Part shown: positions 69 through 16,148 of the stretch, piece by piece
Layout of the letters: each line of letters begins with the position of its first letter
Numbering within the stretch: position 1 is the stretch's first letter
Notes under the pieces: generated by a model
The model's input: the letters and a program-made list of their open reading frames with translations, nothing else
Database searches by the model: none
Told to the model about the DNA's origin: nothing
Made by a program: the position numbers and the translations under genes
NCBI GenBank assembly: GCA_026003335.1
Contig: BPHB01000004.1
Location: forward strand, 2,316-66,315
Direction: 5' to 3'
Length of the DNA: 64,000 bases
Source: Chitinophagales bacterium
GTDB lineage: Bacteria; Bacteroidota; Bacteroidia; Chitinophagales; CAIOSU01

Positions 69-108
69 AGCCTCTTTTTTTAAAAAAAGAGGGGCTATAA
101 AGTCCCTC

Positions 109-660
109 TTAAATCAAGCCTTTAAATTCTATTAAAAGATTCACTTTCTCTTCCATCTTGGCATAGTGAAGCTCAGGATTGGCGTACCAACTCACATCCA
201 CCCCCGCTTCCAATCCATACCGGATCATCCTCATCTGCTGATAATCAAACTCCGGCTTGGCATAGACACTCACATCTAAGCCCTCTTTTAGCCCAAGCCT
301 GATCTCTTCCATCTGTTTCCAGTTAAACTCCGTCTTGGCATACACGCTTACGTCCACGCCTGCTTGTAACCCTAATCTTATCTCATTCATCTGGTAATAA
401 TCAAACTCCGGCTTGGCATACCAGCTAACATCCACTCCTCTTTTTAGCCCTTGCCTAATTTGCAGCATGTGCAAACAATCGAACTCCGGCTTGGCGTACC
501 AACTGACGTCCAATCCCTCTTCCAGTCCAAGACGAATCTCCTCCATCTGCTGATAATCAAACTCCGGCTTGGCGTACCGGCTGACGTCTAAACCTTTTTT
601 AAGTCCTATTTTAATTTCTTGCCTTTGCATCTCTTTGAAGATATCCAAATCTAATTTCAT
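109..660 (-). CDS. 26-aa tandem-repeat protein (6 repeats)
   Basis: Repeat unit EIRLGLxxGLDVSxYAKPEFxxxQM; C-terminus EFKGLI. Confidence 0.9.
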   Translation of the reverse strand: MKLDLDIFKEMQRQEIKIGLKKGLDVSRYAKPEFDYQQMEEIRLGLEEGLDVSWYAKPEFDCLHMLQIRQGLKRGVDVSWYAKPEFDYYQMNEIRLGLQAGVDVSVYAKTEFNWKQMEEIRLGLKEGLDVSVYAKPEFDYQQMRMIRYGLEAGVDVSWYANPELHYAKMEEKVNLLIEFKGLI

Positions 661-695
661 AGTTTTTTAAAAAAAGAGAGGCTAAGCCTCCCTTT

Positions 696-1244
696 TCAGT
701 AAAGATCCTGATATCCTTTTACTTCTTTTATCCACTCATATATCTCATCATTCCCCACGGGGGTGGAGTCTTGTATGCCATGATACTTTTTGTACAAATC
801 ATAAATCATGTCCTGTATAACTGATATAAAAGCTCCTATATCCCAGTTTAAGCGTAAAACCAGTGTATTGGTTAATTCTATCTTTGCTGCCTGATAATTT
901 GGGTAAAAATCATCAAATTCTAAGGCTTCTTTATGAGGACACGATCCGGTAACGCATTTCATGTATCCATCCTCATCAGGGTAGGTTTGAACTGATACAT
1001 AATCTTTTTTAAACCCTTCTGCAAGAATCTTTTCATGATCGAATTCGATCTCTATCCACGCATATTGCGCCATACAATACCGGCATGGTAATTCGCCTGT
1101 TTTTGTGTAAACGGCTTCCAGGTTATCACACATTTCTTCCAGCTGCTTTTCCAGCTCTAACTCTAAATGGTTGCTCCATGATTTGATATCATTAGCTATT
1201 TCATCCAATTTCAAAATCTCTTTGATTCTTTCTATCTTCTCCAT
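696..1244 (-). CDS. hypothetical protein
   Basis: ORF 696..1310. The start is moved to ATG 1244 (MEKIERIKE) because the longer ORF runs through the junction motif. Confidence 0.75.
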   Translation of the reverse strand: MEKIERIKEILKLDEIANDIKSWSNHLELELEKQLEEMCDNLEAVYTKTGELPCRYCMAQYAWIEIEFDHEKILAEGFKKDYVSVQTYPDEDGYMKCVTGSCPHKEALEFDDFYPNYQAAKIELTNTLVLRLNWDIGAFISVIQDMIYDLYKKYHGIQDSTPVGNDEIYEWIKEVKGYQDLY

Positions 1245-1297
1245 AATCCTTATGCCATTTTTCAAAAAAAAGAGGGGGAGTACCCCTCCCCCCTTTT

Positions 1298-1987
1298 TTA
1301 TAATAAACACAAATAATCAGTTATGTTCTGAGGGGTGTTATCATACATCCATCCCTCATTTTCAATCTCCCTTAGGACATTCTCTGATTCTATTACTTCT
1401 ACTTCTTCGTAGCAATGCACATGGATATATCCCATATAGCCACATTCAATGAAAGCGGAGATATACTCATGTGAGTAAGGGTGATATAAATCGCAGTTAT
1501 TAATAATATAAGTAGGGGTTGAACAGTAATAATCGTCGTCGCAAACCTCGACTTCCACAACCAAGCTGAATTCAAAGAATTCAAGCATATCTTTGCTTTT
1601 AAAGCTAAGACAATCAATTGCCAGTAATTTTAATTGGTTTGATTTTATTTCGTTAACGGACCAGTAACAAAGGGTCCCATCCCCAATGATAAGCTCATCC
1701 CCAGGGGTGATAAGATCATACAATTCAGTCCCCCCCATGACTTTTACTTCATTAAATGTATAATAGTTTTCAGCTACTTCTTTAGTGTAAAAGTGCATGA
1801 TTCCATCATGCACATAGTCTTTGTTGACATACAAGATGTCTTTTTGTAGGTTAATAACCCCTGTGACCGGCCGGTAAAATCTTGGTGCGTAATTATCTAT
1901 CTTTTCCGGAAGGATCAGCAAGTAATCATTATGATACTGCCCTTCTATGGTCACATCTGCTTTGTAAAAGAACAATTTCTTTTCCAT
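1298..1987 (-). CDS. hypothetical protein
   Basis: 229-aa ORF with ATG directly after a junction motif. Confidence 0.8.
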   Translation of the reverse strand: MEKKLFFYKADVTIEGQYHNDYLLILPEKIDNYAPRFYRPVTGVINLQKDILYVNKDYVHDGIMHFYTKEVAENYYTFNEVKVMGGTELYDLITPGDELIIGDGTLCYWSVNEIKSNQLKLLAIDCLSFKSKDMLEFFEFSLVVEVEVCDDDYYCSTPTYIINNCDLYHPYSHEYISAFIECGYMGYIHVHCYEEVEVIESENVLREIENEGWMYDNTPQNITDYLCLL

Positions 1988-2031
1988 AGTTTATTAAAAA
2001 AAGTGTGGGGAGGTATTCCCTCCCACACACT

Positions 2032-2316
2032 TTAATCTTCGAGGCAGTCCTCTTCGTCCTCCTCTTCCTCTCCTTCATTGGCTGCTTCAACTAACTCATC
2101 CCAACTGATTTCATCTATACAAATGAAATCGGCAATAAAGTAATATCTTGAAGTGATCTCATCACATATACTTTCAAGATATTCTTTAAATTCATAAACA
2201 CCGTCAGTGGTAAAATCAAATCCCAATTCTGTAATCCACATGCTTGCAGCCCAAGTGGCATGATTCTTCCATCCGTTGTACCCTTTCATAGTTCTTTTTG
2301 TTTTTTGGTTTGACAT
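2032..2316 (-). CDS. small acidic phage protein with YNGWxNxxTW motif
   Basis: GYNGWKNHATW motif, seen in phage early proteins; acidic tail; ATG adjacent to the junction motif. Confidence 0.75.
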   Translation of the reverse strand: MSNQKTKRTMKGYNGWKNHATWAASMWITELGFDFTTDGVYEFKEYLESICDEITSRYYFIADFICIDEISWDELVEAANEGEEEEDEEDCLED

Positions 2317-2351
2317 TTTTTAAAAAAAACAGGCAGTGGTTGCCTGTTTTT

Positions 2352-2840
2352 TTAAATGAGGCCTTCGTATTCCTCATACATCAAAGCCCAAGTAAGAGCA
2401 TCTTCAAATGTAAGCCCGCTTCTACCTGTATGTTCTTCTGCAATGTCTATCAACACTTTACATATCTCATCCAAGTAGTTCTCCTGAACTTCAATTACAC
2501 GCTTTTGTACGGTATCAATAAATGCCGATATAGATTCATCAATAGAATGCGACATAAGCTGACAATCTATTAATTCCTCTCCCCCGCATTCGAGAAGACG
2601 CTCCCTGTTTATATCACAAAAGACAGCTAAATACCCCTCAAAGTCATAATAACATTCTATTGAGGTAGCTGCCTCTACACATTTTTTACAAGGTTTTTTA
2701 CCTATCTTTTTGATTTCTTTTCTTAGTTTTTCGGCCTCGGCTATCAACCTTGGGTGGATGACATTGTCCCAATAGTTCAAGTCTGTTGCCGCGTAATAAT
2801 CGCGCAACAACTCTTTGATTCTGATCAGGGTGTTGTTCAT
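2352..2840 (-). CDS. hypothetical protein (CxxC; C-terminal EYEGLI)
   Basis: 162-aa ORF bounded by junction motifs; KPCKKC resembles VPCEKC in 6230..6739. Confidence 0.8.
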   Translation of the reverse strand: MNNTLIRIKELLRDYYAATDLNYWDNVIHPRLIAEAEKLRKEIKKIGKKPCKKCVEAATSIECYYDFEGYLAVFCDINRERLLECGGEELIDCQLMSHSIDESISAFIDTVQKRVIEVQENYLDEICKVLIDIAEEHTGRSGLTFEDALTWALMYEEYEGLI

Positions 2841-2877
2841 AGTTTTTTTAAAAAAAACAGGGAATACATGTCCCTGT

Positions 2878-3195
2878 CTACAGTAATCCTTTAAATTCTA
2901 TCAATAGCTTAAGTATATCTTTCATTTTTTTTGCGCTAAACTCCGGCTTGGCATACACACTTACGTCTACGCCCTCTTCTAACCCATACCGTATTTGTGC
3001 CATCTGTTTCCAGTTAAACTCAGGCTTGGCATACCAACTCACATCCAACCCTTCTTTTAGTCCAAACCTGATCTCTTCCATCTGTTCCCACCTAAACTCC
3101 GGCTTAGCGTACCAGCTCACGTCTAATCCTTCTTCCAGTCCAAACTGGATTTGTTGCAACTGATTTTCACCGAAAAGTTCTTTGTTTATCTCCAT
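2878..3195 (-). CDS. 26-aa tandem-repeat protein (3 repeats)
   Basis: 105 aa, same repeat unit. Confidence 0.9.
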   Translation of the reverse strand: MEINKELFGENQLQQIQFGLEEGLDVSWYAKPEFRWEQMEEIRFGLKEGLDVSWYAKPEFNWKQMAQIRYGLEEGVDVSVYAKPEFSAKKMKDILKLLIEFKGLL

Positions 3196-3234
3196 AGCTT
3201 TTTTAAAAAAAACAGAGGGGATGTGCCCTCTGCT

Positions 3235-3786
3235 TTAAATCAATCCTTTAAGTTCTATCAATAGCTTAAGTATATCTTTCATTTTTTTTGCGCTAAACTC
3301 CGGCTTGGCATACCAGCTCACGTCTACGCCCTCTTCTAACCCAATCCGGATTTGTTCCATCTGTCCCCAGTCAAACTCAGGCTTGGCATAGACACTTACG
3401 TCTACGCCCTCTTCCAATCCATACCGGATCTTCCTCATCTGCTGATAATCAAACTCCGGATTGGCATACCAGCTCACATCTAATCCTTCTTCAAGCCCAA
3501 ATCTTATTTGCTCCATCTGATGATTGTCAAACTCCGGCTTGGCATACCAACTCACATCCAACCCTTTTTCAAGACCAAGTCTTATTTCCCTCATCTGTCC
3601 CCAGCCAAACTCCGGATTGGCATAGACACTCACGTCCACGCCTTTCCTAAGACCAAACCTGATCTCTCGCATCTGTTCCCAATTGAAATCAGGCTTGGCA
3701 TACCAGCTTACGTCTAATCCTTCTCCCAGTCCAAGCTGGATTTGTAGTAATTGCTCTCTACCGAAAAGTTTTTCGTTTATCTCCAT
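3235..3786 (-). CDS. 26-aa tandem-repeat protein (6 repeats)
   Basis: 183 aa = 105 + 3x26. Confidence 0.9.
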   Translation of the reverse strand: MEINEKLFGREQLLQIQLGLGEGLDVSWYAKPDFNWEQMREIRFGLRKGVDVSVYANPEFGWGQMREIRLGLEKGLDVSWYAKPEFDNHQMEQIRFGLEEGLDVSWYANPEFDYQQMRKIRYGLEEGVDVSVYAKPEFDWGQMEQIRIGLEEGVDVSWYAKPEFSAKKMKDILKLLIELKGLI

Positions 3787-3823
3787 AGCTTTTTTTAAAA
3801 AAACAGGGGATACATGTCCCTGT

Positions 3824-4609
3824 TTATAGTAATCCTTTAAATTCCATTAATGCTTCTCTTTTCTTTTTCATTTCAAGTGAGCCAAACTCCGGCTTAGCAT
3901 AGACACTCACATCCAACCCCTCTTCCAGTCCAAACCTGATTTGTTCCATCTGTCCCCAGTCAAACTCAGGCTTGGCATAGACACTCACATCTAATCCTTC
4001 TTCAAGCCCAAATCTTATTTGCTCCATCTGATGATTGTCAAACTCCGGCTTGGCGTACCAACTCACATCCAACCCCTCTTTTAGCCCAAACCTGATTTGT
4101 TCCATCTGTCCCCAGTCAAACTCAGGCTTGGCATAGACACTCACATCTAATCCTTCTTCAAGTCCAAATCTTATTTGCTCCATCTGATAATTGTTAAACT
4201 CCGGCTTGGCGTACCAACTCACATCCAACCCTGCCTTCAACCCAAGCCTGAGTTGTACCATCTGCCATTCATTGAATTCCGGCTTGGCGTACCAACTCAC
4301 ATCCACGCCCTCTTTCAAACCATACCTGATCTCTCGCATCTGCTTTGGCATGAATTCCGGCTTGGCATACACACTTACGTCTACGCCCTCTTCTAACCCA
4401 ATCCGGATTTGTTCCATCATCCCCCAAGCAAATTCCGGCTTGGCATAAATGCTTACGTCCAATCCTGCTTCCAATCCAAGACGAATCTCCTTCATCTTTT
4501 CCCAAATAAACTTAGGATCGGTATACCAACTCACATCCAACCCTTTTTCAAGGCCAAGACGTATCTGCTCTAATTGCCGTTCGTTAAAAATGTCTTTGTT
4601 TATCTCCAT
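3824..4609 (-). CDS. 26-aa tandem-repeat protein (9 repeats)
   Basis: 261 aa = 105 + 6x26. Confidence 0.9.
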   Translation of the reverse strand: MEINKDIFNERQLEQIRLGLEKGLDVSWYTDPKFIWEKMKEIRLGLEAGLDVSIYAKPEFAWGMMEQIRIGLEEGVDVSVYAKPEFMPKQMREIRYGLKEGVDVSWYAKPEFNEWQMVQLRLGLKAGLDVSWYAKPEFNNYQMEQIRFGLEEGLDVSVYAKPEFDWGQMEQIRFGLKEGLDVSWYAKPEFDNHQMEQIRFGLEEGLDVSVYAKPEFDWGQMEQIRFGLEEGLDVSVYAKPEFGSLEMKKKREALMEFKGLL

Positions 4610-4649
4610 AGCTTTTTTTTAAAAAAACAGAGGGGATGTGCCCTCTGCT

Positions 4650-5591
4650 TTAAAGCAATCCTTTAAGTTCTATCAATAGCTTAAGTATATCTTCCATCTT
4701 TTTTGCGCTAAACTCCGGCTTGGCATACACACTTACGTCTACGCCCTCTTCTAACCCAATCCGGATTTGTTCCATCTGTCCCCAATTGAAATCAGGCTTA
4801 GCATAGACACTCACATCCACGCCCGCTTCCAATCCAAACCGGATTTCTCTCATACTGCCCCAACTAAACTCTTTTTTGGCATACCAAGTAATGTCTAACC
4901 CCTTTTCCAGCCCATAACGTATCTCCCGCATTTGTTCCCAGCTAAACTCCGGTTTGAAATATATACTTACATCCAATCCTTTTTCCAACCCCAGTCGGAC
5001 TTCTTCCATCACCTTCCAAAAATACACTTTGTTAGCATACACACTAACATCTACCCTTGCTTTAAGACCATGCCGTATTTGAAACATCTGAGTGCTGTTA
5101 AACTCCGGCTTGGCATACCGGCTCACGTCCAAGCTTTCTTCCAGCCCAAGTCTTATTTCCTTCATTTGCCATTCATCGAATTCCGGCTTGGCATAAATGC
5201 TCACATCCAGGTCTTTTCCAAGACCAAGTCTTATTTCCATCATCTGTCCCCAGTTAAACTCCGGCTTGGCATACACACTTACGTCTACGCCCTCTTCTAA
5301 CCCAATCCGGATTTGCTCCATCTGTCCCCAATTGAAATCAGGCTTGGCATACCAACTCACATCCAACCCTTTCTCAAAACCAAGTCTTATTTCCCTCATC
5401 TGTCCCCAGCCAAACTCCGGCTTAGCATAGACACTCACGTCCAATCCCTCTTCCAGTCCAAGACGGATCTCCTCCATCTGCTGATAATCAAACTCCGGCT
5501 TGGCATACCAGCTTACGTCCAATCCTTCTTCCAGTCCAAACTGGATTTGTTGCAACTGATTTTCACCGAAAAGTTCTTTGTTTATCTCCAT
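4650..5591 (-). CDS. 26-aa tandem-repeat protein (11 repeats)
   Basis: Start at ATG 5591 (MEINKELFGENQ, identical to the 2878..3195 N-terminus); 313 aa = 105 + 8x26. Confidence 0.9.
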   Translation of the reverse strand: MEINKELFGENQLQQIQFGLEEGLDVSWYAKPEFDYQQMEEIRLGLEEGLDVSVYAKPEFGWGQMREIRLGFEKGLDVSWYAKPDFNWGQMEQIRIGLEEGVDVSVYAKPEFNWGQMMEIRLGLGKDLDVSIYAKPEFDEWQMKEIRLGLEESLDVSRYAKPEFNSTQMFQIRHGLKARVDVSVYANKVYFWKVMEEVRLGLEKGLDVSIYFKPEFSWEQMREIRYGLEKGLDITWYAKKEFSWGSMREIRFGLEAGVDVSVYAKPDFNWGQMEQIRIGLEEGVDVSVYAKPEFSAKKMEDILKLLIELKGLL

Positions 5592-5627
5592 AGCTTTCAC
5601 AGAAAAAAGAGAGACAAGACAGTCTCT

Positions 5628-6188
5628 CTAACCTAATAGGTCAAAATACAGAGATAACTCTTCTGCATAATTGAGTACCACCTGCACAAACCCCTCCTGC
5701 CCGGTCAACTCTTTGTATGCACGAGTCATCACCGGAATGATTTGTGACTTAAAATCACTTGCCGCAAAAACAAGCCTATTCCCAAACTTATTTTTGATAT
5801 CGGCAAGATATCTTTCATTTTTAAGTGATTTCAACGAAGGGTCATTGTAATAGGGCAAAGACCCCTCGATACACCCTACGCAGAAATCATGCTTGATGCA
5901 TGATTTCATCAATGAAAGCTTGCTTTTAATAAGCGATACATCCAGCTGCCCGTTATCAGTAATGATACTGATATGAAAGGCGTCTAATATTGCCTCAGGG
6001 CAACCGCTGCGTAGATCATCTTCATCTACTCTTATACTGTGTTTTTTCTTTACCTCCTCTATGACCTTTGAAAAGGCCTTATCAAGGAGTACCTTGTGCG
6101 CTTCCCCTCTACGTTCTACATCGCTCGCGAGGAGATAGTATTTGTAGAGGGTGTAAATTTCTTTTTTTAGAATGAAGTTATCTTTCAT
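5628..6188 (-). CDS. hypothetical protein
   Basis: 186-aa ORF bounded by junction motifs. Confidence 0.8.
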   Translation of the reverse strand: MKDNFILKKEIYTLYKYYLLASDVERRGEAHKVLLDKAFSKVIEEVKKKHSIRVDEDDLRSGCPEAILDAFHISIITDNGQLDVSLIKSKLSLMKSCIKHDFCVGCIEGSLPYYNDPSLKSLKNERYLADIKNKFGNRLVFAASDFKSQIIPVMTRAYKELTGQEGFVQVVLNYAEELSLYFDLLG

Positions 6189-6229
6189 AATCTATTTCTT
6201 AAAAAAACAGGGGCTTGACATAACCCCGG

Positions 6230-6739
6230 CTATATCAAGCCCCTGTATTCCCAAATGGAATAAGCCCATTCGAGAATTTCGTCTTTTTTCCAAGGGCCCT
6301 TCTTCTTTAAGCCCTTATAATACCCTAATAAGAGGTCGTAAGCCTCTTTCTTATATTCATCCATGATAGGGTCTACCATTTCATAGGCGTCACTACGAAC
6401 ACAACGCATAATCTGATCTACGTCTTTATCATGGATGTAGTTATAAGGGCTTCTATTATGACTGCAATTCCCCTTGGCACAGTTATCCACACGCTCCCAC
6501 CCGAAAGAGTAAAGCGTATAATGGAAGCCTATGCGTACGGGGTCCCATTCTGCGGTGATCTTCACCGCAGATAAAATACACTTCTCACAAGGAACTTTGC
6601 CTCTTTTAAAGGCAATGTCCCTTACTTTCTCATGCACATCGCGGAAAAGACCTCTTATATTCATGGTCTCCGCATAACATGCCGCCGCATAGTATTTAAT
6701 ATATGCGGCAATAACTTCTTTATAAATGTCTAATTCCAT
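6230..6739 (-). CDS. hypothetical protein (CxxC; C-terminal EYRGLI)
   Basis: 169-aa ORF; KYYAAA...VPCEKC layout resembles DYYAAT...KPCKKC in 2352..2840. Confidence 0.8.
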   Translation of the reverse strand: MELDIYKEVIAAYIKYYAAACYAETMNIRGLFRDVHEKVRDIAFKRGKVPCEKCILSAVKITAEWDPVRIGFHYTLYSFGWERVDNCAKGNCSHNRSPYNYIHDKDVDQIMRCVRSDAYEMVDPIMDEYKKEAYDLLLGYYKGLKKKGPWKKDEILEWAYSIWEYRGLI

Positions 6740-6777
6740 AGTTTTTTTAAAAAAAAGGGGTTACCCCCCTTTGATGG

Positions 6778-8010
6778 TCATTCTACATGAACAACCATCT
6801 TCGCTTTCTTTACCCCCGGCTTTGCACCCGTATACATCACAATCCCTACCGTCTTGCCGGGAAATTCTAATACATCATCTGAGTCGAGATAGCCATCAGT
6901 CAATACAATCACGACGTCATGCTTCTTGGCTATCTGCTTCAGATGGAGGCCGAGCTGAGTACCGGACCCCCTGGGAATAGAGGCTTTACGGATGTCTTTT
7001 ATTTTCTCGTACCCCACAATCTCGGTGTCTACATAGTACATATGTGTAGTGACACCTTTGATCAGCACCTGGCCAAGCAGGCGTTTGATCTCATCCTCAC
7101 TCATAGAGAGAGAGACATCCAGCAGCACAGCCATCTCACGGGAGATACGCTGCACACCAGGCAGCTCGCGCATATTGCGCCGGTTGGGACGCCCCCATGT
7201 GTCTATGGAGTCACGGCTGCCTAAGGCATGCTTTAGCAATGCCTTCACCCGATTGGCCCATCTGCCGGGCTTAATCGATGTGATAGACAGCGTGTCCCAT
7301 ACACCAGAGCCGGTCCCGGCAGCCTGAGCTACCTGACTTTTCATCCTTTCGGCTACCGCCGCGGCTTCGGCTGCCGTCGCGTCATCCATAGGCATATGAG
7401 TGTCCGTAGACCCCTCAGTTCCTTGAAGACGCTTAAGCATACCCTTGGCAGTCTCTCTTCCTCCATTTGAAGAAGAAGAGCCACCACGGGAGGCCGAACC
7501 TTTGTTGTCCTCCTCTTCATTCCCCTCACCATCGCCATCCCCTTCCTGCTGCATAGAGTCCTGCTCCTTACGAAGAAACTCATACAGTTCTTCAAAGAGC
7601 CACTCGCCTTCATAGTCAGAAGGCATACGGCATCCTCCTTCAATGAATTGAAGGTCATTAGGGTAGCGCTCAAGTAAGGAGTCATTGATGATGCAGTCCT
7701 GTGCAATATTCGACAGGAACGCATCTCTGTGTCCTACTCTGAGCAAATGAATATTGCTCAAATGCATCGCTTCATGCAAAAGCAAGAAACGAAGCTGAGC
7801 ATCATTTAACTCAGAGGATCTTGGTCCTATATGGAGGACAAATCCCTTCCTCCGTTTGTCGTAACTCACCGCACCATAAGGGACACTCTCATCGTACCTC
7901 TTATCACAAAGGGACAATAAGAGCCCCAGCGCACGGTAGTCTTCGCTCCGCGGTGACGACACTATCCCAAGAATAGTATCGTACACGCGGTTTAAAATGT
8001 CTAATTCCAT
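6778..8010 (-). CDS. metallopeptidase-like (HExxH) + VWA domain protein (DUF2201-like)
   Basis: LLHEAMH, NIAQDCIIND, MIDAS-like LLDVSLS, and LTDG. Start at ATG 8010 (MELDIL) after the junction motif. Confidence 0.8.
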   Translation of the reverse strand: MELDILNRVYDTILGIVSSPRSEDYRALGLLLSLCDKRYDESVPYGAVSYDKRRKGFVLHIGPRSSELNDAQLRFLLLHEAMHLSNIHLLRVGHRDAFLSNIAQDCIINDSLLERYPNDLQFIEGGCRMPSDYEGEWLFEELYEFLRKEQDSMQQEGDGDGEGNEEEDNKGSASRGGSSSSNGGRETAKGMLKRLQGTEGSTDTHMPMDDATAAEAAAVAERMKSQVAQAAGTGSGVWDTLSITSIKPGRWANRVKALLKHALGSRDSIDTWGRPNRRNMRELPGVQRISREMAVLLDVSLSMSEDEIKRLLGQVLIKGVTTHMYYVDTEIVGYEKIKDIRKASIPRGSGTQLGLHLKQIAKKHDVVIVLTDGYLDSDDVLEFPGKTVGIVMYTGAKPGVKKAKMVVHVE

Positions 8011-8066
8011 ACTTTTTTCAAAAAAAAGGCATAGGGACATAGTCCCCGCCTTTCAAACCTGCCATT

Positions 8067-9116
8067 TTAAATGGAGGAGATAATTTTCTTCAGTGTGTTT
8101 CTAAACCGATTATCCCCACCATTAAATTCACGGCTTGCCTGCCCCAAGACCTCCTTAGCCGGTTGTGCCATATTCTTGGCCTTGGTTAAGATGCCGCCGA
8201 CCAAGTCAATAGGCATCTTCTCGCAGGCACGGACGAGAAGTATGGCCTCTTTCTTGGTCACCTTCTCTCTACCCTCCATCCAATCCATGACACCTGTCGC
8301 CACATTAGCGGCGTTGGTGTCATTAATCATATCGATTAGCTTGGGGTCTTTCAGTATATTGACCCAAGTAATCTTACTCATCTCTTCAACCCAGGTGCCA
8401 AATGCAACGGCAGCCCGGGTACCAATTATACCCTTCAATTCCTCAATGCCCAACTCTATATGTTGAGACATTGAGATTACGAATTCCCAGCTTCTGGGGC
8501 TGGGAGCCCCAAATTCATCCCTCATTTCGGGCGCATTGAAATATTTGCGCTCCGACTTCAAAAACGTAACGACCATATTATCGCCGTACTTTTTAATTAT
8601 CCACTGAGACCATGCATCAAAGTCAAGGTCCCAGCGAATTGTCCAGAGACGTTCCCTCAAAGCCGAAGGCATCTCCTCCACAACAGACTCTGTGCCATCC
8701 TCTTCACCCAAGTTGCCGGTTGCGGCAATCTTGGCTTTTCCTGATATTTGGCGACCCTGCCACTCACGCTCATTAAAGAGCTGGTAGAAGGTCACCATCG
8801 TTTTCGGATGAGCCGCATTGAGCTCATCGAAAATGAACAGCGTGGGTTCTTTGCACTCCAGCATCTCCGTTATGATGGGAGAAGCCATGTATTCAAATGA
8901 CTTCTCCCCTAATTTCGGGATGCCTACAAAGTCCTCAGGTGGAGCCTGTACCGGCACCACACGGACGTTCCATCCCTTTGCGTGAGCTATCTCACGAAGG
9001 ATGGCACTTTTACCTGTACCCGGTGCTCCTACAAGGAAAGGCACCGGAACATAGCAATTGCCTTGTACTTCAAGCAAGGCGCTGATCTGGTTTCTTAAGT
9101 TTGTTTTCATGCTCAT
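8067..9116 (-). CDS. MoxR-like AAA+ ATPase
   Basis: Walker A GAPGTGKS, Walker B FIFDELN, ATGN, ALRER and PSPRSW. Adjacent to a VWA gene. Start at ATG 9116 after the junction motif. Confidence 0.85.
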   Translation of the reverse strand: MSMKTNLRNQISALLEVQGNCYVPVPFLVGAPGTGKSAILREIAHAKGWNVRVVPVQAPPEDFVGIPKLGEKSFEYMASPIITEMLECKEPTLFIFDELNAAHPKTMVTFYQLFNEREWQGRQISGKAKIAATGNLGEEDGTESVVEEMPSALRERLWTIRWDLDFDAWSQWIIKKYGDNMVVTFLKSERKYFNAPEMRDEFGAPSPRSWEFVISMSQHIELGIEELKGIIGTRAAVAFGTWVEEMSKITWVNILKDPKLIDMINDTNAANVATGVMDWMEGREKVTKKEAILLVRACEKMPIDLVGGILTKAKNMAQPAKEVLGQASREFNGGDNRFRNTLKKIISSI

Positions 9117-9157
9117 ATTTGTTTTTTCAAAAAAAACCCGCCATAAGGCGGGGCGCA

Positions 9158-9310
9158 TCACCCTCTTGCCATTTGGATGATGCGGGTCATTATATGGATC
9201 GGGGCATATACGATGGCAAACCCGATCCACCCCATGACTATATATCGCCATGCCATACAGGCAATGGCGATAATTAATATAATTAATATAGATAAAATCA
9301 TCTTTCTCAT
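9158..9310 (-). CDS. 50-aa hydrophobic membrane peptide (not in the ORF track)
   Basis: Read by hand: MRKMILSILIILIIAIACMAWRYIVMGWIGFAIVYAPIHIMTRIIQMARG*. It fills the space exactly between two junction motifs. Confidence 0.7.
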   Translation of the reverse strand: MRKMILSILIILIIAIACMAWRYIVMGWIGFAIVYAPIHIMTRIIQMARG

Positions 9311-9587
9311 AGTTTATCTAAAAAAAGTTGCCTATGCAACTATCTTGCCCCTTACATAAGTACCGGTCAATCTAATCTATATATTTATCTCATCATCGCG
9401 GACCGGCAAGAATATTTTGGGCTCCCACAAAAAAAGGCTATCAATCACGATAGCCGTGCCGGTATTCACTGCTTGATTATACGGCGTGCGTGCGCCCATG
9501 TTGCCATGAACGTCCCGGCTCACGCCTCTTTACCCGCCAGCCGCAATGCAATGTCAAGCTCATCACAATGCGACCGAGCAACGTGCT

Positions 9588-9887
9588 TTACCGGGCTACC
9601 ACGTTCACCTGATAGGTGACAGGTGAGCCGGCGATTTCACGCACGCGCTCAACGGGGAGGTCTTTCCCTCTGTCCTCGGGCGTCAATGCCAAGGGCACCT
9701 CAGTGACCCGTTCGGCAAGTGCCGCGAGGTGGAGAGGCAACACCCCGATGACGTGACGACCGCGTACATCGTCAGCACTTGCGTGCGACAGTACGGGCGT
9801 GTCAGGGGTAATCAGCCCAATCTCCAAGAGGTAGTCAACCAGACCCTGATGGCGGGTGACGACGATAGTGTCAGTCATCCCATCCAT
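9588..9887 (-). CDS. csx16: Csx16-like protein (putative cyclic oligoadenylate ring nuclease)
   Basis: VVTRHQGLVDYL...DVRGRHVIGVLPLHLAA...PEDRGKDL matches the recalled Csx16 pattern (TRHxGA...VIGxLPxxLAA...RGxEL). Confidence 0.7.
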   Translation of the reverse strand: MDGMTDTIVVTRHQGLVDYLLEIGLITPDTPVLSHASADDVRGRHVIGVLPLHLAALAERVTEVPLALTPEDRGKDLPVERVREIAGSPVTYQVNVVAR

Positions 9888-10133
9888 TTTATCTAAGGTC
9901 CTAACTACCGGTGCGTTGAAATAGGAGACGCACCCCTCCCACCGAAATCATCTTTTTAAAAAAATATCTCTAATTCATTTTCGTTGTCCCACCAATAGTT
10001 GGCTATGCAACTACCCGGTGACAGCGATGCCCCCTTGCATGCTCTGTGGTTCTCCACGCCCACCATCACCACCGCTTGTCACCCCTGTCCATCACCACGC
10101 CGGTGGTTATGGATAGGTAGGCGGGGAAAAAAA

Positions 10134-10547
10134 GCGCCGGTGACAGGGGAGTATCGCGAATCACCCTGTCCCGGCGACCGGCGTGTGCACCCGCCGGCAC
10201 CAGGTCCTTGCCTACCTGGCGTTTTTTTACATCCACGTCCTTCCCGGGTACAGCAGTGGGCAAGGTCTCAACGGTTGAACCGTCACTGCTACTGCCGGGT
10301 GCAGCCATCCCGTACACATGCGTGCAGGGATGGTACCCCCATGAGTGCTCAGACTTACGCGGTGGCCAGCCGACCAATGCTTCTTGCGGCGAAGACATTG
10401 GCTCCTTCTCACCGGGTTTTACGTAACCGGTCCCATGGGCGACCGGTTACAACCATCGTTATGCCGATGGTACAGCTTCCCCATCCCGGGCGAAGCAACC
10501 CCATGCCCCATGTCGCTGTACGTGCGTCAGCCGACAGGGGCAGCCTG
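10134..10547 (-). ncRNA. putative structured ncRNA, copy B
   Basis: No credible ORF; bounded by junction motifs; shares conserved blocks and covarying stems with 10667..10985. Strand inferred from the junction orientation. Confidence 0.55.
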
Positions 10548-10561
10548 TTTTTTAAAAAAAA

Positions 10562-10653
10562 GGCCGGCGCCTATGCCGGGGGCCTGGGCGACAAGGAAAG
10601 GAGTCGCTTGCGCCCACCGGCACACATCCTTCTTTTAATGGTAGTTGTGCCGG
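10562..10653 (-). ncRNA. putative ~90-nt small RNA between two junction motifs
   Basis: Stems ccggcaca/tgtgccgg and tgggcg/cgccca plus a terminal hairpin; no ORF. Confidence 0.35.
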
Positions 10654-10666
10654 TTTTTTAAAAAAA

Positions 10667-10985
10667 GCGGGGATGCCGCTCGCCCAACGGCAGAGCCCCG
10701 CACACCAGTCCATCCTCTCCCCAATGCGATGGTAGGACGAAATCCCATCCATGTGGGGTACATGGGCACCTCCCGGGCGGTGCCGCACTCCCATGAGCGC
10801 TCGGTTTTACGGGTGGCCAGCCCAACCTATGCAATGCATAGGGAACCTTCTTCCACGGTTTTACGCAGCTCATCCCATGGGCGACTCGCTGCAACCCGTT
10901 CCTACGGACGGGGTCTACCTTGCGGGCATTTGGCAGACACGTGCGTGCCCCTGCCAAACCCGGCCTGCCCCAATAAGGGGCATTC
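10667..10985 (-). ncRNA. putative structured ncRNA, copy A
   Basis: Homologous to copy B with compensatory stem changes; bounded by junction motifs. Confidence 0.55.
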
Positions 10986-11022
10986 TTTTTTGAAAAAAAA
11001 CCGGGCATAGCCCGGGCCTGGG

Positions 11023-11331
11023 TCAGTCCTTGTTGGACTTGACCCAGTCTATGATTTTCTCGCCTATGCGCTCCCAGACGCAGGTGGCATAGGCGTCAAG
11101 GTAGAGTTCCCAAGCTTCCTTGGGAGCTCCATTTAACCAACCCGGGACTTCAAGTCCCGGCAATTCAAACACCCCCTTGTCGAAGGGGGTGGGGGTTGCA
11201 TATATAGATTTCCCGTTTGTATACATGGACGGGGAATCTATATTGACCCACCGAACGAGGGTCATAAACCCTCGTTTGGGGTCTCTATCGAAATCTTCGA
11301 TAGAGACCCCAACGGCGTTTATATACATCAT
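11023..11331 (-). CDS. hypothetical protein, first gene of the leftward array
   Basis: ATG 11331 (MMYINAVG) lies directly after a junction motif. Confidence 0.7.
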   Translation of the reverse strand: MMYINAVGVSIEDFDRDPKRGFMTLVRWVNIDSPSMYTNGKSIYATPTPFDKGVFELPGLEVPGWLNGAPKEAWELYLDAYATCVWERIGEKIIDWVKSNKD

Positions 11332-11565
11332 ATTTTTTTTCAAAAAAAACCCCCGTGCATAGGGGTTTTTGAAAAAAAACCGGGCGTAGCCCGGTGGTGC
11401 GAGGTGTGGGTCAGAAGTCTATTCGAGACTTCTGACCTCACACCTCTTAGAGGTGCGAACTCTCACCTCAAAGTTACTGCTGAGCTGCGAAGCTACCTGC
11501 TGACGCAAGTAGCTGTGCCGCTGCGCTCACGCCGTCACGGACGGCGGCGTGAGCGCGGGGTCTCT

Positions 11566-11742
11566 CCGAAGTGGGGACGTCCGTAGTGGACGCCCCCGTT
11601 TCGGGCGCCCCCGAAGTGGGGACGTCCGTAGTGGACGCCCCCGTTTCGGGCGCCCCCGAATAGTCGGGGGCACCCTTCGGGTGCCCCCGAATAGTCGGGG
11701 GCCCCCGTTTCGGGTGCCCCCGAAGTGGGGCACCCGTAGTGG
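11566..11742. repeat. GC-rich palindromic tandem array (about 15-bp period; exact 45-bp duplication)
   Basis: 11566-11610 is identical to 11611-11655 (ccgaagtggggacgt ccgtagtggacgccc ccgtttcgggcgccc), followed by ccgaatagtcggggg x2 and variants. Confidence 0.9.
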
Positions 11743-11830
11743 ATTACGTTTCCGTTTCGTACTCATACTGCTTTTAGGGGGGGGTTTTGTAACAGTCCCT
11801 TGAAGCGCTGCGTATAAAAAATAAAAAAAT

Positions 11831-11860
11831 AAAAAAGGGAGGGGTATTGGATCCCCTCCC
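11831..11860 (-). terminator. intrinsic terminator downstream of 11884..12396
   Basis: gggagggg/cccctccc stem followed by a T-tract on the - strand. Confidence 0.7.
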
Positions 11861-11883
11861 GGCGACACGCGATGGTGACTGTT

Positions 11884-12396
11884 TTATGATGAGAGGCGTG
11901 CTTCTGCGATCACGTATTCATCGACCGTGTTGGTAAGGGTGATGGCTGGTTTTTGGTATTCTTCAAGCAGGGTATTGAGGAGGAAGTCAGGGACGTTCTT
12001 TTTGCAGGCGTAGTGGGCGATGCCGTACAGTTTGTTGAGGAGGTCGTAGGGTGGAGCTTCGTAGTCGCCGTATTCGTCTGTTGACTGCCGGATGACAGAC
12101 AGCAGCTTATTTAGTGCGGCATTGAATGCCCGTGCGTTATATCCTTTTTTCAGTACGATACGGATGAAGGTAATGATGGAAGTGCGTGCCTGTGATTTCA
12201 TGACGTCTTTGATGTCTTCTTTCATCCCGTCAATGACCTTGCTTATTGCTATGGCATCCTCTATGTTATGGTCTTTTATTTCGGGCACGTAGAAGTTAAT
12301 ATGATCAAACAGTTTCGGACGTTTAGCCCCTGTCTTGGCGGCTATGTAGTCGTTATACAGCCCGAACATAAGATATGGCGTCCTTGCATTGATCAT
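11884..12396 (-). CDS. hypothetical protein
   Basis: 170-aa ORF with an A-rich upstream region and a terminator downstream. Confidence 0.75.
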   Translation of the reverse strand: MINARTPYLMFGLYNDYIAAKTGAKRPKLFDHINFYVPEIKDHNIEDAIAISKVIDGMKEDIKDVMKSQARTSIITFIRIVLKKGYNARAFNAALNKLLSVIRQSTDEYGDYEAPPYDLLNKLYGIAHYACKKNVPDFLLNTLLEEYQKPAITLTNTVDEYVIAEARLSS

Positions 12397-12421
12397 AGTT
12401 TTGGGTTTTATATGTTATGGA

Positions 12422-12820
12422 TTACATCGGTTCAGTTTGCGTTCCCGTGGTTGCTTGTGGGTCTTGGGCTATCTCCGGGCTTGACACCTCTACTTCTCTC
12501 AGTCCTATCCGTTTGAACAGGAAATTAAACATTCCTTCATTGATGAGTTTGTTGAGTTCAAGGTTTACTCTTGGTGACCGGAAATATACCGGCTGTCCAT
12601 TAAAGACGAAATAGTTGTTATACAGAGACATGTATTGGGTAAGGAAATTCAAGAGCGTTGACAGTTCTTGTTGCGTGGAAGCTTTAGGTATTTCTGGCGG
12701 TGTCTCATTCCCCAGTGCTTTTTCGATGTCATAGGTGATTGAATACTGAGAGTTTGGGTAGTCATAGATTACTCTCACTTCTGACTTGTCTTCTGTCAAA
12801 ATTATCTGATTCATAGTCAT
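12422..12820 (-). CDS. hypothetical protein
   Basis: 132-aa ORF, divergent from 12883. Confidence 0.75.
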   Translation of the reverse strand: MTMNQIILTEDKSEVRVIYDYPNSQYSITYDIEKALGNETPPEIPKASTQQELSTLLNFLTQYMSLYNNYFVFNGQPVYFRSPRVNLELNKLINEGMFNFLFKRIGLREVEVSSPEIAQDPQATTGTQTEPM

Positions 12821-12882
12821 TTAAGTTTTGGTTTAATGCATGTAAAATACTAAATTTAGCGTATGAAATCAAGGATTTTACT

Positions 12883-14442
12883 ATGAAAAATATATTTTCA
12901 GGCATTACCAGAGATACGCTGGAGAAGTTATCCCCTTCCCTTGTAGTAATGGATAACAGAGTGGTTGGCGACACTCACTATATGTGGTTACGTCCCAAGA
13001 TAGCCGATTTGGAGGAGTTTATTTTAAGCAAGGTAGAGAATGGAGACAGCGGGTTAAAGGCTGTTTCAAGAGAGTATTTATTAGCCGGCTATGAGGATGT
13101 GATGGACTCATACGGATATCTTAACGACTTGATCTATGCTGATATTCAGAATGTACACGGTCTTGATCGTCTCATGGTAGCCATCTCGGCCAATTATGCA
13201 AACACGCTTGAAATACCATTTGAATTATCTTTTTTATTCAGGGCCAAGAGAGCTTTAATATATATAGACCACACTTTATTTAAGAAGAACTACCTTCATA
13301 ACGTAGGCATATACAGTGGTCTTGGTCGCGAGTGTGTCATATACCCTTATTTGAACATAAACAATTTGTTTGGAGGCAAGCTTGAAGAGCTGACCATCAT
13401 GAGTGATGGTCCGGTAGCCGTAAGCACCGGACGTCATGTCTATGTACCACGCCTGCTTGCAAATGGCACTACTTATGGAGGCACTGACTCTTATTATGCT
13501 AACGTATTAACTGTCAAGGGGTGCAATACACAGACGCCCGTATTGCTTCCTGATGCGATAGGGTATAGCCCTAACGCATTCCCTTACAACTATGCCCATT
13601 TAGGTGTATTAAGCAAGGAGGTCCCTTACAGCCCATTGGATGCGGATGTGCCTTATGAGATAAGATTAAGCCCTGCCGGTTCAAACTACGACTATGCCGC
13701 ATTGAACACCAATCTTTATTACCATTATTGGGGTATGGATTCAGCTTATTTGACCCCTTTGATAGAGAAGGATAAATACTTGATGGGTTATTATTACGGC
13801 ATGCCCAACGGGGAACGCTCTGCCACGAACACCATCCTTGATGACGGCTTACATGTCTGCTTACCAAACCGTGCGGTAACCAATGCGACCCCATTCCAAA
13901 CCAATCTCTTAGTACCGGTCTATGACCTGTCAAGAGAAGACGGCATCCCCGGTGCTTGTGTGTATATAGCTATCGAATTCAAGCGCAGGGGCAAGTATTC
14001 AAACCTGTATTCTAATGGCACTTACAGGAACCCTGTCTGGGCGTCCGGTATAATACACACGCTTTTACCCGATGACGGAGACCCATATTCATTTAAGTTA
14101 GCCCCTTACAACAGCTTTGCCGCCGGATCTTACGATGTGCAAACGCGTATTAACCATGGACCCGTTGACGCCCCTTATACCGTCAAGGCAGACAGCAAGT
14201 ATGATGAACGTGGTGAATATGTGTGGATAAAGATGAAGCATGGCGATACGTCTGTGTTATATGACGTATCCATCCCTTTATCAAGTTGGTCCGGGCGAAA
14301 TGACTATCGTGCCGGAGGCATCAGTTATGTGTTGCATGAGGTGATCATCACGGCAGAAGAGCTTGACAAGGAGCAGGAGAATAAGCTAATCAGCTCAGTA
14401 AATAAATTATGGGGGACGGCATACCCATTGCGTGATGAATAA
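12883..14442 (+). CDS. hypothetical protein (Tyr/Gly/Asn-rich, possibly virion-associated)
   Basis: 519-aa ORF followed by a terminator. Confidence 0.75.
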   Translation: MKNIFSGITRDTLEKLSPSLVVMDNRVVGDTHYMWLRPKIADLEEFILSKVENGDSGLKAVSREYLLAGYEDVMDSYGYLNDLIYADIQNVHGLDRLMVAISANYANTLEIPFELSFLFRAKRALIYIDHTLFKKNYLHNVGIYSGLGRECVIYPYLNINNLFGGKLEELTIMSDGPVAVSTGRHVYVPRLLANGTTYGGTDSYYANVLTVKGCNTQTPVLLPDAIGYSPNAFPYNYAHLGVLSKEVPYSPLDADVPYEIRLSPAGSNYDYAALNTNLYYHYWGMDSAYLTPLIEKDKYLMGYYYGMPNGERSATNTILDDGLHVCLPNRAVTNATPFQTNLLVPVYDLSREDGIPGACVYIAIEFKRRGKYSNLYSNGTYRNPVWASGIIHTLLPDDGDPYSFKLAPYNSFAAGSYDVQTRINHGPVDAPYTVKADSKYDERGEYVWIKMKHGDTSVLYDVSIPLSSWSGRNDYRAGGISYVLHEVIITAEELDKEQENKLISSVNKLWGTAYPLRDE

Positions 14443-14458
14443 TAAGCTTCATTGCAGG

Positions 14459-14492
14459 CGGGGGTGTAGTGATGCTGCACCCCTGTTTTTTT
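14459..14492 (+). terminator. intrinsic terminator
   Basis: ggggtgtag/ctgcacccc stem followed by T7. Confidence 0.75.
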
Positions 14493-14562
14493 ATCTGTTA
14501 AGACTTGTAATTTTGGTAAATTTACTGTATATTTATAAAAGTAAAACTAAAATTGCAATAAT

Positions 14563-15333
14563 ATGAAAAAGGTTTGTTTGTTGGTATGGTTATTCGTTTG
14601 CCCGCTGGTTTCTTTTAGTCAGACCGATGGTGATTTCAGCCTTGAAGGGCTCATAATCCGGTGTTTGGATTCATTGGATAAGGACACTGTTTTGTTGTTC
14701 TTTGAAGAAGACCATTATCCGGAATTGCCTTTTGATGAATCCTTTTACGACTATATAAATGACTGTTACCTTTATTATTCAAGGGTTGTCCCTATTGTTT
14801 ATGTGTTTGCGACAAGGGATGGTAGCGGTAATGTATTGATCTTTGACTATGGGTATTTGTTGCCTACTGAGTTTTACTTCCTGACGATGGAAGGTGTCTT
14901 GGATATTCATTGCTTAATCAGTCATGACGGACACAGTGTGTATTGGATATACCGGACTGAGGTGGTTGACCAGGGCAAACTACCGCCACAACTGAGGGTT
15001 GATTCAAAAGGGTCATTTTACTTACAGTACGGAGACAGGAAGGTATCATTAAACCGGACGTCGGATATGGAGTCCGGTTATGCAAGTTCTGCTTTGGTGT
15101 GGAATTACCCCTCGCTTTTCCTGTGGCGCAAGTTTGACATACGCAAGGCTGAGGACAGGGACTGTCTTCACTTCCTTCTGAACCTTCCGGTAGGATATAA
15201 GATTTACAATGTAGATGATGCAGGAGTGGAGACGGAGGTTTTCAAAAGGAAGTATACTCTTGACAGGTTTCAGGAGTATATGTGCCGCCTATACTTCTTT
15301 TGGGAAAACAATTACTCAGCCTTGTCTAAATAA
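14563..15333 (+). CDS. putative exported protein with signal peptide
   Basis: MKKVCLLVWLFVCPLVSFS-Q, a Bacteroidota-style signal peptide with Gln at +1. Confidence 0.7.
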   Translation: MKKVCLLVWLFVCPLVSFSQTDGDFSLEGLIIRCLDSLDKDTVLLFFEEDHYPELPFDESFYDYINDCYLYYSRVVPIVYVFATRDGSGNVLIFDYGYLLPTEFYFLTMEGVLDIHCLISHDGHSVYWIYRTEVVDQGKLPPQLRVDSKGSFYLQYGDRKVSLNRTSDMESGYASSALVWNYPSLFLWRKFDIRKAEDRDCLHFLLNLPVGYKIYNVDDAGVETEVFKRKYTLDRFQEYMCRLYFFWENNYSALSK

Positions 15334-15479: not shown

Positions 15480-16148
15480 GAAACGGGCTCAGGAGCGAAG
15501 ATCTGTTTTCGCAAGTATAATCTATCATCTCAACATGAGATCGTCGTTTATACGCCGTTTAAAAGGCTTGCAGCTGATTCCCCCTGTTTTTTTTGCTTTT
15601 GCCTTTAGTTTCTTTTAGCTACTCAAGCGTCTATAGCAACCCGGTGTTGCAACTACGCTACAGTACCCCGTTACTGTAGCACGCTATAGTAACACGTAGT
15701 TGTATATATTATATATTATATATATTATACTATAGCGTGTACTATAGCACGTAATTGTACCGGGGTACTATAGCGACACGTGGGATGCAGGCTTATATGC
15801 CTCTAAAGCATATAAGCCTGCATCCCTTACTGTAGCGGGGTATTGTATATTTAGAGACTTAAGATTATTTCAATAGAGAAAGACTTAGATAGCTATTATT
15901 AGCTATAAATCAGAGAATTATACTTGAATCCTTCATGGATACTTGAGATTTATTCTCTTGGATGCTTTAGTTTCAAAGAGAAGCTAAAGCCGGTTGGTTT
16001 TGCTTGGTTTTAGCTTTCATGATTTGAGCTTTTTGGTTAAGACCTTGTCAGAGCAACAGAAACGGGCTCAGGAGCGAAGATCTATTTTCGCAAGTATAAT
16101 CTATCATCTCAACATGAGATCGTCGTTTATACGCCGTTTAAAAGGCTT
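15480..16148. repeat. two 90-bp direct repeats flanking a palindrome/iteron-rich non-coding core (candidate origin or terminus)
   Basis: 15480-15569 and 16059-16148 differ at one base. Perfect 19-bp inverted repeat at 15782-15826, about 7 (ta)ct(a/g)tagc-like units, and a TA-only tract at about 15703-15729. Confidence 0.85.

Follow-up and report, generated by a model that had tools for sequence, protein, structure and literature searches.

The nearest precedent for the locus described here, judged by analogy, would be the crAss-like Cellulophaga phage phi14:2, for which two very abundant early non-coding RNAs (g004-g005 and g005-g006) have been reported, their role being given as unknown in the part of the source that treats them (bioRxiv 10.1101/2020.03.07.982082). 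In our Rfam comparison, one non-coding region of that phage (NC_021806, our L067, 4031-4502) was tmRNA-like at 46 bits, against a cut-off of 47 (E 3e-16), and the other (about 2905-3590) had no Rfam match. Racrs and solitary repeat units, according to excerpts of PMC10651486, are intergenic CRISPR-repeat mimics that phages carry beside anti-CRISPR genes, the solitary repeat units being recognised by at least 90% identity over at least 90% of a known repeat. The put element of phage HK022 is an RNA of about 70 nt with two stems located just downstream of the promoter (PMC9378689, in part).

Here we describe two related units, copies A and B, in the early region of a phage, which represent a real, conserved and uncatalogued structured element, probably an early phage RNA. 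We are fairly confident that the element functions, in one way or another, as a minus-strand RNA, and our main reading, to which we assign a probability of roughly 40%, is that A and B are free early RNAs acting as counter-defence decoys. The window (the whole stretch of DNA that was analysed, 64,000 nt, in which all positions are numbered unless stated otherwise) is part of an 86,145-nt contig (C4) of assembly G000. It represents a hot-spring crAss-like phage, with a major capsid protein of crAss type (PF23898, E 6e-44) that has at best 26% identity to named phages, as well as terminase and DnaB helicase genes, and the public runs matching the region were mostly hot-spring metagenomes. No RNA run was found among the public runs listed as carrying the region. 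The contig also encodes a protein of 6,155 aa that carries a DxDGD motif (residue 3442) and, from its sequence, is a candidate virion RNA polymerase.

The array genes left of 12.8 kb all lie on the minus strand and are separated by a junction motif that, read on this strand, consists of a GC hairpin, a U-tract, one base and an A-tract. The 86-kb contig has 23 such junctions, all on the minus strand, with an ATG no more than 8 nt after the motif in 15 of them; elsewhere in the assembly the motif was almost absent from other small contigs and present at about one tenth of the density on chromosome-sized contigs. The 23 junctions bound nearly every unit of an array of about 20 kb (window 75-11366 together with contig C4 76633-83457, minus strand), and cassettes have been gained and lost at them among relatives. 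A-rich gene starts are typical of Bacteroidota, and in sequence the junction reads as an intrinsic-terminator-like end followed by an A-rich start of Bacteroidota type. The junctions may serve the virion polymerase as terminator-restart modules, or be sites of recombination; N4-type hairpin promoters, which were also considered, were unsupported as such, the loops not being conserved. Several genes of the array (window 109-5600) are made up of 26-aa tandem repeats (78-nt units), and the contig end overlaps this repeat-gene region, suggesting a circular genome. A MoxR-type AAA ATPase gene adjoins a DUF2201 metallopeptidase-like gene at 6778-9113 (minus strand). To the right of the array, 1.6 kb (13701-15325) showed 98% identity to positions 1405-3027 of contig C21 of G000, hinting that genes have been exchanged with the chromosome or with a second strain, and a second gene-free stretch with long inverted repeats (arms of 36 and 19 bp) lies at 15656-15850, upstream of structural genes.

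Copy A is predicted to form a transcript unit of about 325 nt (10660-10985, minus strand), based on junctions at both ends, folds and a terminator scan, and runs from a 5' hairpin (P1) through the core and unrelated 3' hairpins to a terminator-like hairpin with a U-tract. The junction 5' of this copy lies at 10986-11015 (minus strand), with others at 10654, 10548, 11333 and 11366. Copy B, predicted from the junction at 10548 and from folding, is a unit of about 420 nt (10127-10547, minus strand) with P1, the core, unrelated 3' hairpins and a final hairpin followed by seven U. Its folding z-score was -4.69 on the minus strand (none of 100 shuffles as stable) and -5.09 on the plus strand, and that of A was -1.72 (matched by 5 of 100 shuffles) and -1.55, respectively. 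Local alignment of the two copies scored 43, whereas the best of 500 dinucleotide shuffles scored 38. Moreover, a covariance model built from B alone on a hand-drawn structure (R1; source 10332-10503, minus strand) found A over all 172 positions on the minus strand with 49.9 bits (E 2e-12), the next best match reaching 14.9 bits, and the 3.9-Mb assembly held exactly two copies. From this match and the pair counts, the conserved core of A was placed at 10784-10963 (minus strand). The 3' halves of A and B are hairpin-rich and unrelated, with 477 of 500 shuffles scoring as high. The preliminary description of this locus, which reported two copies of a structured RNA of about 300 nt set between gene-like junctions and lacking a shared reading frame, was thus borne out in the presence and position of the copies and in the junctions, found at both ends of A and at 10548 for B, but not in the length, as only about 172-180 nt are homologous. 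Its statement on reading frames also held: six-frame comparison gave no shared ORF, indels and stops break the frame, and the start codon is not kept, the ATG after the A-tract of A being absent from the junction letters of the relative X4 and B having no ATG.

According to the predicted fold, P1 follows the A-tract with the same six pairs in both copies, and the core forms a four-way junction in which an invariant P2 closes a free P3, P4 and P5. P5 is capped by an invariant 8-nt loop, L5 (B 10433-10440; A 10875-10882, minus strand), which is identical in the two copies and contains a 6-nt palindrome, and an invariant A-rich strand leads from there back to P2. Between P7 and its cap P6 lies an internal loop rich in purines, both sides of which are conserved, and a second A-rich linker joins P7/P6 to the hairpin P8 (B 10335-10346; A 10785-10800, minus strand), which shows two one-sided G-U changes. 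On an alignment of these two paralogues fitted to the structure of B, 13 of 47 pairs changed on both sides, and 94% of the cells paired compared with 31-46% when the partners were slid. This upholds the covarying stems claimed at the outset, though six of the 13 double changes fall in P3, whose arms have no sequence in common and may not be homologous. On the other hand, the case for a further stem with an invariant 8-nt loop proved weak: a shared 8-mer occurred in 16% of shuffles, the helix that carries the loop is not the same in A as in B, and the relative X7 has a change in it at 10524.

L5 is predicted by modelling to be a pseudoknot or kissing partner, and P8 may alternatively serve as the 3' partner of an L5 pseudoknot. 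The pseudoknot suggested earlier rests on 8 bp of complementarity between L5 and the loop and stem of P8, and on a duplex of -12.1 kcal/mol; because its bases are invariant, covariation gives it no support, and on the model the L5-P8 pseudoknot is likely. L5 could also pair with itself, raising the alternative that A and B are free RNAs whose palindromic loops join them as homo- or heterodimers or as cages, after the manner of ROOL, GOLLD, ARRPOF or manA, and whose role lies outside CRISPR (scaffold, storage, or stress or translation control). Palindromic kissing loops together with A-minor contacts build such assemblies, according to parts of bioRxiv 10.1101/2024.12.08.627333, PMC12990946 and 10.64898/2026.07.01.735769; here the palindrome is invariant in both copies and the conserved junction strands are A-rich. 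However, the self-duplex (-8.4 kcal/mol) is weaker than the intramolecular L5-P8 pairing, the core is far smaller than ROOL or GOLLD, the contig carries no tRNA island, with no tRNA or tmRNA genes found by ARAGORN in the window and the contig, and at gathering threshold the 64-kb window had no match to the Rfam models for ROOL, GOLLD, ARRPOF, manA, tmRNA, RNase P or ribozymes. We therefore consider assembly of this kind unlikely.

The arrangement of the units bears on whether they could instead be cis-acting antiterminators of the put or EAR type, working on the nascent RNA to allow read-through of the terminator-laden array, as the preliminary description had proposed. The copies lie close to the start of an array that has about 20 terminator-like junctions, copy A of X4 comes directly after the first junctions, a host-type -7 box is present at 11476-11469 (minus strand), and put acts over 10 kb (PMC9378689, in part). 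Nevertheless, three junction terminators (11379-11395, 11350-11365 and 11001-11015) precede A, so that read-through or re-initiation would be needed before any copy is made, although the true promoter may lie elsewhere. Thus the copies cannot be what first licenses read-through, which points to restart at the junctions or to read-through set further upstream. Moreover, each copy has its own terminator, two tandem copies are left unexplained, the -7 box is common (about 70 instances in the scan), and the phage carries a candidate virion polymerase motif, making antitermination quite unlikely.

The preliminary description had read the element on the plus strand. The direction of genes and terminators and the G-U bias indicate that it is very probably read on the minus strand. 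The neighbouring array genes and terminator-like junctions all point this way, and the hand-picked helices contain ten G-U pairs on the minus strand and none on the plus strand, a count biased by their having been picked while reading the minus strand. An unbiased count beside helices made of Watson-Crick pairs only gave a G-U excess of 10 against 3.2 +/- 3.7, reached in 7 of 150 shuffles; an earlier automated count over all possible stems was too noisy for use. Furthermore, reading the minus strand gives tandem G-A pairs in P5 of A, where the plus strand would have pyrimidine mismatches. Folding z-scores of full copies or cores did not separate the strands, and a change at 10427 in X7 suits the plus strand better, being a wobble there and disrupting P5 pairing on the minus strand, but may be an error at a contig depth of 3.2.

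The same region might act as DNA, namely as a structured single-stranded signal for priming, origin or entry beside the replication origin. Consistent with this, the contig's cumulative GC skew reaches its minimum at position 11176, the stretch 11000-11800 is packed with long hairpins and 15-nt repeats, z-scores with DNA parameters resemble those for RNA (B -3.0, A -1.7, minus strand), and the G-T bias fails to separate DNA from RNA. Against it, a multibranch junction, tandem G-A pairs and a pseudoknot are RNA-like features, the units are bounded by terminator-like junctions exactly as genes are, the skew largely follows the coding strand, and the hairpin block is replaced in the relative X3; we consider a DNA signal improbable. 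The stretch 11000-11850, at the skew minimum, is nonetheless a candidate origin or genome end. It is dense in perfect hairpins, some of them within an ORF of about 102 aa, with GC-rich 15-nt repeats at 11566-11743, and in X3 it is swapped for 218 other letters. The ORF itself (11023-11331, minus strand), upstream of A, appears to be an optional cassette by its joints in X2, X3 and X4, in all of which it is missing or replaced. Neither this ORF nor its neighbour at 11884-12396 matched a protein family, and their atlas matches were all below 0.9.

Close relatives retain the element. In a variant comparison of X2, X3 and X4 covering the best-supported 40 of 439 variant rows, X2 and X4 kept both copies in one piece, while X3 had a single fused copy on an 8.9-kb contig, with the 5' part of A joined to the 3' part of B at 10873/10409 and the unit that links the copies absent; the fusion makes the halves of A and B look interchangeable. 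The RNA region diverged by 3.6% in X2, 5.4% in X3 and 7.5% in X4, compared with 3.5%, 4.1% and 4.9% for the coding stretch 11771-13000 and 9-10% in all three for 9000-10041. Hence, the RNA region is about as little diverged as the neighbouring coding stretch in X2 and X3, and more diverged in X4. The contrast was sharper in X7, where four of 288 nt were substituted in the RNA parts (three of them in the 184 nt matching copy B, 10362-10545) against 13 of 115 nt in the linker (Fisher p 4e-5), the latter accompanied by several indels over 10546-10660.

Candidate structured RNAs outside Rfam reportedly exist, in large metagenomic and phage catalogues and as theta ribozymes. That no known RNA family is involved agrees with the preliminary description: Rfam 15 gave no hit at gathering score over the 64-kb window, and the rows overlapping the copies at E up to 10 (P10, Hrs1 and SorX only) were at chance level, with 14-20 bits and E of at least 0.15. 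A ribozyme, also put forward there and taken here as a new self-cleaving or processing one that trims the early transcript, is very improbable. The core is compact and combines a four-way junction, an internal loop rich in purines and a pseudoknot with invariant unpaired bases among free stems, which would suit one, but no Rfam ribozyme matched even at E 10, the junction terminators already define the units, and by eye the internal loop does not resemble hairpin-ribozyme loops, nor the core an HDV-type nested double pseudoknot.

Distant homologues were sought by blastn, which gave no match in 50,697 phage records and one 38-nt chance match in 72,556 plasmids, and by a DNA search of 40 relatives, in which nine short matches (E 0.02-0.1) were found and none judged true. 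Exact patterns retrieved 0, 4, 25 and 1 stretches from viral contigs, 14 from metagenome contigs and seven from genome contigs; all were inspected and had neither the flanking stems nor the second block. The two-sequence covariance model (R2) found nothing in phi14:2 and four distant crAss-like records (0 of 5), reached at best 11 bits in 72 viral Csx16 loci, and gave one match of 18.9 bits in 61 genomes of the family of genome G045, located in a response-regulator-like coding stretch and judged to be chance. Since exact patterns assume conserved letters and R2 is insensitive, distant members could escape both. Within these searches no homologue was found outside this close lineage. The literature searched listed no description of the RNA, and the passages of PMC8375218 that were consulted contained nothing on phage ncRNA.

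The neighbourhood of the copies is suggestive of counter-defence. A Csx16 (Cas_VVA1548) gene lies 250 nt downstream of copy B (9588-9887, minus strand; PF09652, E 1.5e-17, over the cut-off), and from its sequence the product is predicted to be a cA4 ring nuclease and anti-CRISPR. At 60%, the GC content of this gene exceeds that of the genes on either side. Members of the family degrade cA4, and the family is reported from two of 28,114 phage genomes in the part of PMC12409355 concerned with it; in IMG/VR we found 72 further viral loci with Csx16 relatives, far above these two phages.

A junction-bounded unit of about 95 nt (10562-10653, minus strand), variable in relatives, links the two copies and contains at 10626-10641 (minus strand) a 16-nt exact piece of a Bacteroidota CRISPR repeat, identical to the repeat found in G045, which belongs to the same order as G000. 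The piece is predicted to lie in crRNA sense on the minus strand, and it is clamped in a strong stem within the unit. It covers 16 of 37 repeat positions exactly (43%) and 20 of 37 overall by hand count, occurs once in the contig, is intergenic and lies 740 nt from Csx16. A match of 16 nt to the G045 repeat is expected 7e-5 times in the contig, a figure to be read in light of the several repeat families that could have been considered; that of G045 was singled out because a spacer-like contig in run X1 ties it to the phage. The fragment was unchanged in X7 (0 of 22 sites at 10626-10647, against 13 of 93; p 0.07), and related repeats form arrays in genomes G658, G531 and G063. On this sequence basis, the linker unit is a candidate partial Racr-like element. 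An apparently solitary, near-full repeat of the same family was also seen on another viral contig (L079, about 1480-1520, minus strand). Copies A and B themselves are neither repeat mimics nor anti-repeats; their pairing with the CRISPR repeat was no better than that of shuffles, 117 and 101 of 300 being as good.

The X1 contig follows copy A as far as 10951, then carries the first six letters of the repeat and goes on to match from 10626; extra depth in two bins fits about 30 and 19 nt by hand calculation. The contig thus appears to be a host spacer plus repeat matching copy A, with an inferred protospacer at about 10922-10951. If the repeat runs in the conventional direction, as assumed here, the sense of the apparent spacer is that of RNA A, so that the two could not pair. 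In G045, a Cas10-like gene belongs to what looks like a type III cluster, the genes beyond Cas10 being judged by eye, and no Cas3 scored over the cut-off; close relatives of the same repeat family adjoin cas3 in G658 and G531, so the CRISPR type is not certain. None of the 28 spacers of the type III-A array of G000 matched the phage, nor did any of 32 partly redundant flanking stretches from G045 and G680, and a 21-mer search at two mismatches in 401 genomes of the order gave single scattered matches only. The repeat of G000 agrees with the phage fragment at 15 of 23 positions, and because of this difference G000 may not be the host.

Covariation, conservation, terminator-bounded units and the lack of an Rfam or ORF account together support a new structured phage ncRNA, here a prediction, as the preliminary description supposed. 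Its further suggestion of an anti-defence decoy gains circumstantial support from Csx16, the repeat fragment and the apparent spacer on A, the link being one of neighbourhood only. Given this counter-defence island, a decoy is the most economical reading. Under the decoy explanation, A and B would be transcribed early from the minus strand as separate, stable, free RNAs, with each junction ending one RNA and starting the next, by re-initiation or processing, to yield about 325 and 420 nt. Since both end in their own terminators, they would be released as discrete RNAs, their ends protected by P1 and the 3' hairpin. The four-way junction and the L5-P8 pseudoknot would hold the invariant unpaired strands as a protein-binding surface, and free stems around invariant unpaired strands suggest a tertiary fold recognised by a partner. 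The RNAs would then work in trans, decoying a host protein of defence that most likely belongs to type III CRISPR, and duplication with different outer helices could broaden or dose the decoy. The locus could thus form a three-part island, in which the ring nuclease removes cA4, the repeat fragment engages Cas6 and the structured RNA titrates a further component.

A bolder form of the decoy reading, which we put forward with little confidence, is that the folded RNA is itself an anti-CRISPR whose tertiary surface traps a type III component (Cas6, Csm/Cmr or a cA4-sensing effector) without copying the repeat, that it works with the partial repeat decoy and the ring nuclease in a three-layer island, and that the virion polymerase uses a terminator-restart junction to make each unit as a separate transcript. 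Nearly all structured phage RNAs in this size range are, to our knowledge, orphans, and the context here is unusually specific in combining a ring nuclease, a repeat fragment and an apparent host spacer. If A and B inhibit type III CRISPR, they would constitute a new class of RNA anti-CRISPR; if they are oligomeric, they would be a small thermophilic addition to the RNA-only assemblies. Two natural paralogues, a natural fusion and a thermostable 175-nt core make function and structure directly testable, and the junction motif offers a handle on how crAss-like virion polymerases define early transcripts.

Compared with known systems, A and B share with put that they are phage RNA elements near the head of a terminator-rich early region, and differ from it in having a branched 175-nt core, in being duplicated and in having terminators before and after. 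With ROOL, GOLLD, ARRPOF and manA they share a phage-borne, multibranch architecture with pseudoknot or kissing-loop potential and no established function, whereas the small core, the unrelated 3' halves, the absence of tRNA genes nearby and the counter-defence island set them apart. The linker unit resembles Racrs and solitary repeat units in being solitary, intergenic and near an anti-CRISPR gene, but at 43% exact coverage of the 37-nt G045 repeat it falls short of the 90% coverage rule, and A and B, not being repeat mimics, are unlike Racrs. As for phi14:2, R2, a two-sequence model with limited reach on an AT-rich genome, had no match there, and the RNAs of that phage were shown to be expressed while A and B are known here from sequence alone; in both cases, however, a crAss-like phage carries two neighbouring gene-free units in its early region, in the same sense as the early genes.
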